A stretch of DNA of 64,000 nt from Eledone cirrhosa. Taxonomy: Eukaryota. The notes beneath the pieces are model-generated. The model saw nothing but the letters and a program-made list of their open reading frames with translations, did no database searches and was not told where the DNA came from. Positions 733 to 60,021 of this stretch are shown here, piece after piece. Every line of letters begins with the position of its first letter. Within the stretch, counting starts at the first letter, position 1. The stretch is taken from the NCBI GenBank assembly GCA_964016885.1, contig OZ024758.1, forward strand, positions 30,132,001-30,196,000. Direction: 5' to 3'. The translations under genes and the position numbers were made by a program.

Positions 733-933
733 AACGAAGGAAATGTGGTAAGGAACCAGATGGACCATAACGCACCAAAGTACTCAATACTTAGGGTAGT
801 AGAGTGGGTAATAGGAATAAAGGACCCCGACGGCTGAGCTCAAGCCGTTTCGACGGCTAATTCTGGACTTAATTAGCCGTCCAGAATTAGCCGTCGAAAC
901 GGCTTGAGCTCAGCCGTCGGGGTCCTACTTGTT
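733..933. mobile_element. Palindromic (TA)n-flanked element with the 3' half of a hammerhead (family G)
   Basis: Inverted arms ~822-865/881-926; GAAA-CGGCT-tgagctc-AGCCG-TC; second copy at ~59646-59860. Confidence 0.6.
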
Positions 934-993
934 TATATATATATATATATATATATATATATATATAACATTTGTTCGCTCTACATGGCTGAA

Positions 994-1211
994 TACAATA
1001 AATGTAATATGAGTTTTTCGAATATTAATAATAACATTCGATTCGTTTGCAATTATGCAAACAAGCTTCATTTTTAAAGCCAGGTAAGTAGAATGAACCC
1101 TTCATTCTTGCTCATTACATACATGGCTTTAAAATGGAGCTTGTTTGCATAATTACAAACGAATCGAATGTTATTATTAATATTTGAAAAACTCAGATTA
1201 CATTTATTGTA
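994..1211. repeat. Foldback inverted repeat between (TA)n tracts
   Basis: ~90-bp arms 994-1082 and 1125-1211 are near-perfect reverse complements. Confidence 0.8.
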
Positions 1212-1353
1212 TATATATATATATATATATATATATATATATATATATATATATATATATATATGTGTAAAAGGTAACCAGAAATAACAACACAATGGGT
1301 ACAGTATATGGAAGGTATACATTAGGTTAACGCTTGATACAGCAGGAAGAGGG

Positions 1354-1389
1354 TCTTAACGTTTCGGACGCTAGTCCTTCATCAGAAGA
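1354..1389 (-). ncRNA. Minimal hammerhead ribozyme motif (family B)
   Basis: Minus strand tctt-CTGATGA-a-GGAC-tagc-GTCC-GAAACGTT-aaga; identical core at 52052-52087. Confidence 0.8.
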
Positions 1390-2254
1390 AAGAATGAGAA
1401 ATAAAATAGATTAAGGGGACGGGCGGGATGGAATTGGAAAAAAATGTCTTTAGATAATATATATATGCACCAAAACAATGTATCTCTAGCGGTCGACTGA
1501 TGAGATGGGACCACTGTTTGTATTTGTTCATTTTCCTATCTTCATCCATATTTTTATTCACACACACACATACATATATATATATAAATGAAAATATAGA
1601 AATTATTGTGAGCAAGAAGCCAACAGTATTTCATATATATAAGTGACTATAACGTCAAAATGGAAAATAATTAACGTAAGATATGAGAAAATAATTCAAA
1701 CTCAATTAAAAAAAAGTCAAGACAGAGATTTTATCCACAGATTTTGTGAAATCCAGGGAAAAACCAATAGAGTCTTAACTCAGAATCAAATAAAGCTTAA
1801 ATACTCATCCTTCAATTTGGAAAAACTACAAATGCTCTATATAGTCTTAAAAAGACTATTTCACACACACACACACACACACACATACATATATATATAT
1901 ATATATATATCCATATGTAGTTGAAAGCCTACTCAATACCGAAGTAGAATTTAAATATTTCTTTAAGACTAAATAGTGAGTCTTGTTACTCTGGGGTTGT
2001 TTCACTTCTTCACAAGCTGACTCTCCAGAATAACAAGACTCACTATTTAGCCTTCATAAGATGGATATATATATATATATATATATATATCTATATATAT
2101 ATATAGATTTTGAGTTTATGTTGGTTGTATATCAACACCTCAGTATGCAGGCTGGAGCACTCGACGAAGTGCGCAGGTTGGTTTGGTTACTCCGGAGTAG
2201 TGTAAAATAAAGTTATATAAAAGTCAAATGATTAAAATTTAGCTTCGTTTATTA

Positions 2255-2307
2255 CTGCTATATATATTTCAGTGACAGCCATCTTTGGCTGTGACCTCTT
2301 CAGGCAG
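2255..2307 (-). ncRNA. Hammerhead motif (family C), left arm of palindrome 2201-2470
   Basis: Reverse complement of 2362-2414. Confidence 0.75.
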
Positions 2308-2361
2308 TTTGAATTAGTATGGTATAGACATATGTACTTGTCTATACCACACTAATTCAAA

Positions 2362-2414
2362 CTGCCTGAAGAGGTCACAGCCAAAGATGGCTGTCACTGA
2401 AATATATATAGCAG
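2362..2414 (+). ncRNA. Hammerhead motif (family C), right arm of palindrome
   Basis: ctgc-CTGAAGA-ggtcacagcca-aaga-tggctgtcact-GAAA-tatata-TA-gcag, followed by AATAAA. Confidence 0.75.
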
Positions 2415-3261
2415 TAATAAACGAAGCTAAATTTTAATCATTTGACTTTTATTTAACTTTATTTTATATATATTTATATATATATACAGAGGTGCAATAG
2501 CAATAGTCTTATTGGTTTCACGCTTGAAAGAAAAAGGAACGTATCGGACGTTAGTCCTTCATCAAGAGTACAGGAAACTCAAAGATGGGATTCACAGATT
2601 TAAGAGGACAAAAAAGGAAGGTATATATGCGTGTGTGTTGTAATAATTCTTATGAAGAATTAAATACAACATGAAGACATCTCTCTAGAAGGTCACTGAT
2701 ATAAAACCTGCGACTTCGTTTGCATCCAATGATGTAAACCAGTTCTGAAGACCAGTACTTCTTTTGGGGGCAAATTCATTTGATGTTCAGAGAGTGGGAC
2801 TGGCCCCGTGAAAAGCCTTTCCTTACCGAAAAAAGCTTCAAGCACAGGCATTGCTTGATATGCGACATTCTTTTGCTATACATGGAATTACTGGCCATAG
2901 CCAAGTCTCTAGCAGTCCGTGATGTCCATGCTTAAGTATCAAGCGATGGCATTACTCGAAATGGAGTTTCAGCCATCATATATTAATGTATGTATGATGT
3001 AACAGTGAGAGAGGGACATGGTGTAATATATTATGTAGTAGGGGATCTCTATTAATTCCTGCTAATATCTAAACATAATGAATCTTTCAGGCTTCACAAT
3101 GGTGCCATCTTCTCTCTGTTATACTCAACTAAATCCCAAAACTTGGAGGGTTCAAGTATTAAACTGTGATAACAGATGGTGTAATCTTCCTCTTTATGTT
3201 ATAACTTACACCCCACACCCTCTCTCTTCCCTTCACTCTCTCTTCCCCTCTCCTTGTGACG

Positions 3262-57297: not shown

Positions 57298-57475
57298 TAT
57301 ATATATATATATATATATATATATATATACCTCAACTTCATTTGCATATTCATCTTAATAATTTGAAATATTTGACTTTTCTTCTCTTTCCCCTCTTTCC
57401 TTTTACTATCCAGGAAAAATTTGAACTGTTAAGATCTCGTTCCTGGATATGTCACTATTTATAAAACAAACTTTG

Positions 57476-57536
57476 TATTTTATCTGATGAGAGCATACCA
57501 AAGTTTTGGTACCCTTGAAATATATATAATAGAATA
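57476..57536 (+). ncRNA. Hammerhead motif (family D)
   Basis: tattttat-CTGATGA-gagcaTACCAAA-gt-TTTGGTAccctt-GAAA-tatata-TA-atagaata. Confidence 0.6.
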
Positions 57537-58465
57537 AATATGGTTCTATAAATATAGTTTCCATTTATTAATATCATTGAATATTATACTCCAGAAAACT
57601 TGTTGAGTGCTTCGAATATGTTATAAATAAATTTGTTGCATTACGAACAAATTAAATATCCCTTTGCTTATATATATCATCATCATCATTTGTTTAACGT
57701 CCATTTTAAACGAAGATGATGATGATGATGATGATGATGGTATATATATATATATATATATATATATCAGCAAATATATATATCAACTAGAAATTGATTG
57801 ACATATATATATCTAAAATAAACATATGAAACAATCACAGGGAATAATTTGTAAAAGTGTGTAAGCACACACAGCTATGTAGGTAACTAATTAAAGTTTA
57901 ACTAGAACTTTAAAAATAGATACCTTATAAGTTGATTAATCTTCCTTGTATATATTTCATTAAAGAAATATATTTCTACAGTGGATGTGGCGCATATCTC
58001 TCTGACATGACACCCTTAATATAATTTAATTTTGGATATATATATATATCATCATCATCATCATCATTTCATTTAACGCCCACTTTTTCCCTGCTTGCAA
58101 GGGTGGGACGGGAACTGATATATATATACAGTAGAAAGATGGAGAATCGGAATATCGGCCCACGAAATCACGATAAACAATATCCGACATGTGTGGCAGA
58201 GGGCTCAATAGTTTGGAAAAACCAGAGCTATAACTATCGTTAAAATACCAACACACAGAGATCATGCCTAAAATCACCCGTGCAGCCGAAAAAGAACGAC
58301 CAGGAAAATTCGGGTCACTCAAATAAAATATCAATAAATTAATAAATTAAATGAATGTAAAAAAACTCTATATTTTGAGTATACATTGGTTGTATACCAA
58401 CACGTCAGTATGCAGATTGGAGCACTCGACGAAGTGCGCAGGTTGGTTTGGTTACTCCGGAGTAA

Positions 58466-59399
58466 TCTATATATATAAAACTGAGGTTGTCTGTCTGTCT
58501 ATCGATTTTTGGCACACATCTCTTAGAATCTCTCACGGAATTGCACCGAAATTGCTATACTTGTACATTGAGCCCTAGCGAAGACATCGGAAAAAAAATA
58601 TTTCAAATTGACCCGCCCTATCTGACGAAATCGAATATAATGTATCGATTTTTGAGCGTAAGTGATCAGTTATTTCCCTTTGTTCTGTTTACATTGAGCG
58701 TCTGCGTGCAAAAATTAAAAAAATTACGCTGGCTTTCTCAGCGAAGCCTTTTAAAACAATATTTTTACTTGAAAACAAGTCTATTTAAAGACTACGTAAA
58801 ACAAGCAAATATTTCGTAAAAAAAAAGCAAAAATTATATAAGTTTATTTAAAATATATGTATCTGTAAATTTCGTTAGGCGTGCAGACAGACAGTCGTGC
58901 AGACAGATAGTTGTGCAGAGAGGTGATATACGCGTGCAGACAGACAGTCATGCAGAGAGGTGATATACGCGTGCAGACAGACAGTCGTGCAGAGAGGTGA
59001 TATACGCATGCAGACAGACAGTCGTGCAGAGAGGTGATATAGGTGTGCAGACAGACAGTCGTGCAGAGAGGTGATATAGGCGTGCAGGCAGACATAACTG
59101 ATAATTTGGTTACGCTAATGTTTTTCTCTGCGTTGCAGTGTTTACATTTTCGATCTTTGTTAATAAATAACCAGTGCAGTTTCTATCCCCAGCATCCTCT
59201 TTTGTTATAACATTCGGGTTATCGTTATGTTTTCTTAACTTCATAAGGCATATTGTTGGTTGAGGGAATATTAATCAAAAACACCACATGCAAGTCTGCA
59301 CAGTAGACACTACAGTTTTTAAGCCAAGAAAGAAACTTAACATTGTAACTTTAACACAGCTACTGAGCGACCCCGAGCAACGCCGGGCTTTACTGCTAG
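58466..59399 (+). mobile_element. Non-autonomous Helitron with internal ~37-bp repeats
   Basis: A|TCTATATATATAAAACTGAGG ... CCCGAGCAACGCCGGG ... CTAG|T; empty site seen at ~2190-2215. Confidence 0.85.
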
Positions 59400-59455
59400 T
59401 GTAAAATAAAGTAAAATAAATAAGTCAAATGTTTAAAATTTAACTTTGTTTATTA

Positions 59456-59508
59456 CTGCTATATATATTTCGGTGACAGCCATCTTTGGCTGTGACCTCT
59501 TCAGGCAG
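59456..59508 (-). ncRNA. Hammerhead motif (family C)
   Basis: ctgc-CTGAAGA-GGTcACAGCCA-aaga-TGGCTGTcACC-GAAA-tatata-TA-gcag; canonical G-C closing pair. Confidence 0.8.
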
Positions 59509-59645
59509 TCCGAATTAGTGTGGTATAGACAAGTACATATGTTGTTGAGGTGTATAATTTTGTCAATACTCTGATATGCCCAGTTCCTGGTTGGGTTGTT
59601 ATTTCACTGAGGAACTGGAATCATATATAACCTCTGCATATATAT

Positions 59646-59860
59646 AGGAACAAATAAGACCCCGACGGCTGAGCTCAAGCCGTTTCGACGGCTAATTCTG
59701 GACTGAATTAGCCGTCCAAATTGGACAGAATTAGCCGTCGAAACGGCTTGAGCTCAGCCGTCGGGGTCTTACTTGTTCCTATTACCCACTCTACTACCCT
59801 AAGTATTGAGTACTTTGGTGCGTTATGGTCCACCTGGTTCCTTACCACATTTCCTTCGTT
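59646..59860. mobile_element. Palindromic family-G element
   Basis: Second copy of 733-933 in the opposite orientation. Confidence 0.6.
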
Positions 59861-60021
59861 ATATATATATATATATATATATATATGCAGAGGTTATATT
59901 TAATTTGTTGGGATTCAACAAGCTTAACATTTTTTTATAACTGATATAAAGCACTCAACAGATTAGTGGAGTAAATACACAATATATTAATAAATGGAAA
60001 CTATATTTATAAAACCATATT

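Follow-up and report, generated by a model that had tools for sequence, protein, structure and literature searches.

A duplicated hairpin beside the insertion ends of Hydra-type Penelope-like retroelements in Eledone cirrhosa

Penelope-like retroelements (PLEs) are the closest relatives of telomerase, and the question of how they choose the point at which copying starts and come to carry a one-sided tail is unanswered; in one element copying is known to initiate internally, with no signal defined for it. This question is raised by a 64,000-nucleotide stretch of the Eledone cirrhosa genome (assembly GCA_964016885.1, contig OZ024758.1, positions 30,132,001 to 30,196,000 of the forward strand; hereafter the window), in which one 10-mer, TYGAGTRCTY, recurs near the 3′ ends of several hammerhead-type ribozyme families, here called C, D, E and G. 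What does the 10-mer do there? A prediction made from the sequence alone had regarded the families as unrelated and the motif as a cis signal, for reverse transcriptase (RT) recognition or initiation, for transcription as a promoter, or for splicing as a donor-like site. The sequence analysis reported here supports a cis signal, with RT recognition or initiation as probably the best of these options, and lends no support to the promoter and splice-donor readings.

Results

All nine predicted sites of the 10-mer were recovered at exactly the predicted coordinates and strands, against a mean of 0.98 and a maximum of 4 in shuffled sequence. Because the pattern had been fitted post hoc to these nine sites, which come from only five to six families, and because the number of one-mismatch sites in the window was at chance (22 found, 23.4 expected), we tested the motif out of sample, elsewhere in the genome. 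Thirty-nine evenly chosen 10-kb stretches (390 kb) held 25 matches, 17 of them with a complementary stem upstream. Sixteen of the 25 lay 15–90 nt before a TA run of at least four units, a zone that holds 12.9% of background positions. In the same stretches 200 permuted motifs gave means of 4.7 matches, 0.4 near TA and 0.5 with a stem (maxima 39, 11 and 17, respectively). Genome-wide (3.0 Gb) there were 181,198 matches to the motif and 20,594 to a reversed control; with ACTC 5–34 nt upstream the numbers were 135,753 and 3,122 (some sites counted twice). A GCTC/GAGC form had 7,866 matches against 53 for its control, and adds sites in the window that the 10-mer had missed.

The 10-mer makes up the 3′ half of a bulged stem-loop, RCUC-[stem-loop]-UH-GAGY-RCUY. 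What had been read as the complete signal is one side of a covarying structure that each element has twice. RCTC lies upstream of each site in the window, with the 5′ strand clipped at 52264. The hairpin is a motif separate from the hammerhead, lies downstream of it and has no catalytic core. For covariation, 330 instances were gathered on sequence criteria only, whether or not they could pair and with satellite loci excluded, and were grouped by 3′ flank into 41 clusters; most of the loci had been fetched with motif-bearing queries. Across the clusters the outer pair was A-T in 21, G-C in 15, G-T in 5 and A-C in none. Inner pairs 1–3 were Watson-Crick in 29 of 41, 25 of 38 and 26 of 35 clusters (shuffle means 16.2, 13.3 and 8.5), values reached by none of 5,000 shuffles, and pairs 4 and 5 were weak, with 138 and 222 of 5,000 shuffles reaching the observed value; the clusters share descent and several are from one further repeat family, H, so that these shuffle counts overstate independence and are not probabilities. 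A MAFFT alignment of 32 hairpins was not structural, and the pair counts were made without it.

Conservation was scored in 16 hairpins from eight families chosen for showing two hairpins. CTC, GAG and CT were invariant (eight positions, 2 bits), against 0.02–0.46 bits, about 0.2, at the 19 positions after the hairpin, and the flanking regions of no two of these families aligned at E ≤ 1e-3. The original prediction would have been undone by a motif no more conserved than its neighbours, and the figures of 2 and about 0.2 bits contradict this. It would also have been undone by a motif that was residual homology between alignable families. Here the motif is indeed homologous by descent, but the surrounding DNA no longer aligns between families, and the motif is therefore constrained rather than residual.

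Full-length copies contain two hairpins, hairpin 1 and hairpin 2, 61–99 nt apart, between the hammerhead and the ATG of an open reading frame (ORF). In copies that read through into the ORF (families D, G, C and E, two D-like families and one more) the ATG follows stem 2 by 12–61 nt. Many insertions consist of inverted arms, and their ends were mapped by script in families D, G, C, E, D-like, L330 and H, with the L278 family outside this set. TA-ended arms stopped 0–9 nt 5′ of a hairpin in 105 of 112 cases in family D (152 arms, of which 22 read through and 18 had no TA end), 81 of 85 in G (103 arms), 14 of 16 in C (24 arms) and 4 of 4 in E (7 arms), as well as in 39 of 43 (62 arms) and 49 of 58 (80 arms) in D-like sets that may overlap family D; TA ends were seen in none of 6 arms of the L330 family and in 2 of 14 of H. 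The modal offset was 2–6 nt 5′. Each stem has arm ends immediately on its 5′ side, where element and target have a TA in common. The presence of TA is not enough to fix these ends: the D reference has 20 TAT sites and the G reference 6, and those away from the stems are not end peaks. Contigs from public runs had (TA)n loose ends at the same two positions of G, which precede hairpin 2 by 3 nt and hairpin 1 by 5 nt; they come from four runs of one study, possibly of the same source as the assembly, and are silent on splicing and expression.

The two kinds of arm occur together. Among 98 two-armed insertions, 96 paired a tailed with a tail-less arm, 2 had two tailed arms and none had two tail-less arms (family E gave no pair); in loci not picked by their tail the pairing was one of each in 35 of 35. 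Since arms end at one or the other hairpin and pair one of each kind, the two end points flank the motif, which places it in the PLE ‘tail’. The predicted spacing of 30–65 nt between motif and (TA)n is explained by this arrangement, since it spans from hairpin 1 to the end point that precedes hairpin 2; we measured 26–62 nt at eight of the nine sites, the ninth (58420) having no TA run within 130 nt. The predicted order of motif and hammerhead needs two qualifications: copies of family G in the window hold only the 3′ half of a hammerhead-like fold, and a Helitron-like insertion of 934 bp stands between site 58420 and its hammerhead.

We then asked which elements carry the hairpins. Judged by protein sequence, families G, C, D and E are the 3′ ends of Hydra-clade PLEs, and so not unrelated as first thought: all four read through into Hydra-clade ORFs. 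The assignment was made from protein traits and by-eye comparison with the text of the Hydra-1_Obim protein only. An upstream walk from family D led to an endonuclease with a CxCx5C linker and without CCHH, which are marks of the Hydra clade in the text of Craig et al. 2021 (PMC8557442). Read-through copies of D, G, C, E, the two D-like families and one further family all enter a Hydra-type N-terminus. The single ORF, with RT plus a GIY-YIG-type endonuclease at the C-terminal end, is intact in G (717–719 amino acids, in a 3542-bp tandem) and has the same layout in broken copies of C, D and E; proteins of the other families are 31–44% identical to that of G. A Pfam scan of the G protein named no domain; of 7998 candidates scored against it, 2017 are related at E ≤ 1e-40, and homologues carry PF26215 or PF28514. 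DKT replaces DKG in G, C and two other families, and RWK is found in C and RWR in G, D and E. The CxCx5C linker, the absence of CCHH, and CxxC and CxH flanking E and N were read in G, D, C and E. Putative hammerhead cores (CTGANGA...GAAA) are present in the sequences of D, C and E, and insertion is into (TA)n, with tandem or inverted pseudo-long terminal repeats (pLTRs) that carry a tail.

The single RT-endonuclease ORF, DKT, the RW-type motif, the linker and lack of CCHH, CxxC/CxH around E and N, a putative pLTR hammerhead, (TA)n targets and tailed tandem and inverted copies are all shared with the Hydra clade as the text of PMC8557442 presents it. A length generally under 3 kb, a soft trait there, is not: the G unit is 3542 bp and the D 3′ untranslated region (UTR) ~1.4 kb. 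The Neptune marks (a CX2-5CxxC linker and a CCHH endonuclease) are absent from G, C, D and E and present in Neptune-type families of the same genome, where none of four had the hairpin in the 250 nt before the ATG. A Neptune partner for the motif was thus rejected, a GIY-YIG search having given Neptune-type families without it. A coding origin was also rejected, since in every family with read-through copies the ATG comes downstream of the motif.

Some observations on these elements stand apart. At one locus (L342, a G pLTR) stem II of the hammerhead-like fold is long, stem III is real and the 5′ core is non-canonical. A donor-like GTATGT lies ~35 nt upstream of the D hammerhead core (L002, 1441–1450) and recurs in D and E-like families. 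Neptune-type families have a short motif of their own, ACYYGTG..CAC, a small hairpin a few bases past the tail-less end (L121 2490–2510, L133 2330–2355, L091-type), possibly a clade-specific counterpart of the Hydra hairpin.

The hairpins extend beyond the first families. A family picked by similarity to a non-octopus protein alone (30 loci) has two hairpins, with arm ends 2–3 nt before each (by eye, five loci). Among 24 metagenomic loci picked by RT sequence, four hold the whole region from hammerhead to ATG, and two hairpins were found in three of the four (L352, L353 and L359, the first two being close relatives). Two more, L356 and L360, have one hairpin before the ATG, and L366 stops 3 nt before the hairpin 1 of its family; the remaining loci lack the region or are decayed. 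In published Hydra consensi, inspected by eye, Hydra-1_Ajap (sea cucumber) has two clear hairpins before the ATG, and Hydra-2_Ajap and Hydra-2_Amil (coral) have one clear hairpin each.

Discussion

The hairpin is probably an RNA signal bound by the RT-endonuclease of the element, which would position the start of copying 2–6 nt 5′ of either stem. The evidence for initiation by RT consists of genomic end positions and covariation only. We take arm ends as RT start sites because, in the text of Frangieh et al. 2024 (PMC11167929), RT of the anole Poseidon element PAc starts in vitro at two internal sites, the interval between which is the tail. The protein would bind the stem, its probable contacts being the invariant CUC/GAG pairs, the 2-nt bulge that opens with U and the CU at the trailing end. 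The endonuclease would nick (TA)n, and the freed end would pair with the UA(UA) immediately 5′ to the stem. Copying that starts at stem 2 would include stem 1 and give a tailed arm with the motif, and copying that starts at stem 1 would give a tail-less arm; with two starts, one per stem, tail length would equal stem spacing. Both starts would be used together, in a single event on opposite strands of the target, and the resulting cDNAs (complementary DNAs) would join into an inverted stub.

We propose more tentatively, at somewhat below an even chance, that two RT molecules grip the tandem hairpins and prime both nicked (TA)n strands in one event, with one cDNA per hairpin. If so, twin priming would explain both the one-sided tail and the inverted arms of PLE insertions, and the hairpin would be a portable start signal of 25–45 nt conserved across animal phyla. 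PAc cuts and extends both target strands and is predicted to dimerise (text of PMC11167929). A homodimer prediction for residues 1–480 of the G protein, made without an alignment, gave a score of 0.00 and no verdict.

Several observations weigh against a start signal, in addition to the shared descent of the covariation clusters. The A-T/G-C split of the outer pair largely tracks hairpin 1 versus hairpin 2, the inner stem is only 1–2 bp in several second hairpins, and single hairpins of the window are weak, at −2.5 to −10.1 kcal/mol predicted without a shuffle control. Family H has only a degenerate second hairpin, and only 2 of its 14 arms end in TA. The metagenomic loci L365 (which holds the whole region) and L363 have no hairpin and L351 only a variant; three of the six published consensi (Hydra-1_Crog, Hydra-1_Amil and Hydra-1_Obim) have imperfect or weak hairpins by eye; and the second end of the non-coding L278 and L290 units (see below) has no canonical hairpin.

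The same arm ends would be expected if the stems directed cutting or termination of the RNA 2–6 nt upstream, by a host nuclease, an element protein or the RNA itself, and RT started at ordinary 3′ ends. Some small ribozymes do cut just 5′ of themselves. We nevertheless consider this unlikely: a single stem of 25–45 nt with a variable offset is unlike known self-cleaving folds, no Rfam ribozyme family was matched at the sites, and a cut at stem 1 would destroy the template of the tailed arm, yet both arms are present in 96 of 98 insertions. In addition, the anole element was shown to initiate internally in the absence of a free 3′ end (text of PMC11167929). Less probable again is a DNA site, in element DNA or cDNA, at which the endonuclease acts when the intermediate resolves. 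The 8-mer GAGYRCTY is close to self-complementary, and according to work cited in Frangieh et al. 2024 (PMC11167929) the tail of Drosophila Penelope is needed for endonuclease recognition. However, the central Y-R positions do not keep the palindrome, and the upstream RCTC and inner stem covary with the 8-mer in the manner of a folded single strand (the inner pairs do not discriminate between strands); on the sense strand the outer pair accepts G-T (5) and never A-C (0). Neither the inserted arm nor the target, moreover, contains the stem adjacent to each end.

The position of both stems between hammerhead and ATG, together with the PLE promoters in the pLTR described in the text of PMC8557442, would suit 5′-UTR elements for transcription or translation of the ORF, the ends lying nearby by coincidence with TA sites. 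We give this very little credence, since the distance from stem to ATG varies over 12–61 nt, against 2–6 nt to the ends, other TAT sites are unused, and the stem persists in non-coding units. We find neutral residual homology, or a splice site, hardly plausible. The families share ancestry and the donor-like GTATGT lies upstream of the D hammerhead, but the invariant positions among low-information, unalignable neighbours and the compensatory pairs already contradict neutrality, and a splice site does not fit a motif that has no fixed GT or YAG and occurs twice.

For the start signal that we favour there are precedents. LINE (long interspersed nuclear element) and R2 proteins recognise 3′ stem-loops that are shared by their SINEs (short interspersed nuclear elements), and L1 undergoes twin priming. 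As there, a small structured RNA would set the choice of template and be borrowed by non-coding passengers, and two primings can give an inversion. LINE and R2 signals lie within the copied 3′ end, whereas the hairpin lies beyond the start point, is uncopied from that start and is duplicated. With PAc (text of PMC11167929) the elements share an AT-rich target, and would share two internal starts that bound the tail, a stem-loop at the start region and the cutting and extension of both strands. They differ from the Hydra clade of PMC8557442, whose text ascribes the tail to endonuclease resolution and describes no RNA element in it, in tails of 61–99 rather than 30–40 nt, and in the 3.5-kb unit and non-canonical 5′ hammerhead core (one locus) of G. 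A duplicated hairpin adjacent to the start was not found in the literature searched (text, not figures, with few subscription journals), including PMC8557442, PMC11167929, PMC4209133 and PMC13282606, each covered in part. By sequence, then, the elements appear to be members of a known clade, and the duplicated start-adjacent hairpin the new part. A duplicated hairpin that predicts both ends within a few bases, together with the one-of-each pairing of arms, makes the start-point question one that can be addressed directly by mutating or moving the hairpin. It also offers, with more than 100,000 motif sites in the genome, a diagnostic for Hydra-clade ends and non-coding passengers.

Sites in the window and related repeats

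Hairpin 1 of family G occurs in two stubs of the window: at 778–805 (−), with a tailed arm at ~734–873 (−) and a tail-less arm at ~879–933 (+), and at 59788–59815 (+), with arms at ~59726–59859 (+, tailed) and ~59649–59708 (−, tail-less). In family C, hairpin 1 at 2155–2198 (−), with a 6-bp inner stem, belongs to a stub whose tailed (~2107–2330, −) and tail-less (~2328–2460, +) arms both have a hammerhead core. A second C copy has its hairpin 1 at 58420–58463 (−) and its upstream part at 59400–59626, with a hammerhead core at 59504; it is split just before hairpin 1 by the Helitron-like insertion at 58466–59399, which ruled out a reading of this site as tail-only. The insertion is 934 bp long and non-coding, starts with TC, ends with CTAG, has a subterminal hairpin and lies between A and T of its target. 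The family E stub has hairpin 1 at 9262–9293 (−), a tailed arm at ~9205–9443 (−) and a tail-less arm at ~9449–9580 (+).

Family D contributes hairpin 1 at 52264–52289 (−), its 5′ strand clipped at the inversion junction between a tailed (~52203–52289, −) and a tail-less (~52285–52455, +) arm, and at 59949–59972 (−), with arms at ~59887–60089 (−, tailed) and ~60092–60242 (+, tail-less). A stub of a D-related subfamily has hairpin 1 at 57588–57612 (+) within an arm at ~57405–57666 with a hammerhead core at 57484. Two tail-less D-like arms, at 9037–9186 (+, core at 9084) and 13076–13228 (+, core at 13136), have no motif because both reach their terminal TA short of where hairpin 1 would stand. 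Other stubs of the window that bear a hammerhead or are bounded by TA lack a hairpin, at 420–696, 1266–1457, 51760–52175, 8556–8977 and 48560–48900.

The site at 9797–9820 (−), first described as an orphan, is hairpin 1 of a short copy of repeat family H, also present at 1910–2054, where a degenerate hairpin 1 at 1926–1950 (−) was missed by the 10-mer. Family H runs into more than 1.2 kb in which no Hydra or Neptune ORF was found. Beside the stub, 9850–9900 presumably resembles the 3′ part of 5S ribosomal RNA, with no Rfam match. Rfam gave 63 matches at E ≤ 1 in the window, none of them a ribozyme or 5S and none over the nine sites. A 5S origin of the motif was rejected, with no comparison to the genome's own 5S genes, as homology of the ‘orphan’ repeat covers the family H part only and Rfam has no 5S match.

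Elsewhere in the genome, a satellite of 58-nt units extends over more than 25 kb (G000:C1, ~14.233–14.261 Mb; L254–L272, L348, L349), with one array end not reached. Its unit joins a G-like hairpin 1 to a piece matching, on the opposite strand, another repeat. An origin from the tail, reused in a telomerase-like manner, was rejected because of the chimeric look of the unit and because D, G and C yielded no dimers of the tail. Internally deleted G mini-units (L284/L309, L056 and L320; 257 and 244 nt, one a tandem trimer) keep both hairpins and half of the hammerhead, with differing breakpoints. L278 and L290, non-coding tandem units (~580 and ~620 nt) that each contain a hammerhead-like core and a single hairpin, look like retrozyme-like passengers. 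In the window, a possible TCTC/GAGA form of the hairpin lies at 55906–55943 (+), 41 nt before a TA run. The GCTC/GAGC form lies at 25387–25416 (+), 68 nt before a TA run and missed by the 10-mer, and, in the same family, at 58199–58228 (−); 25285–25484 and 58131–58329 look related to the L278 and L290 units.

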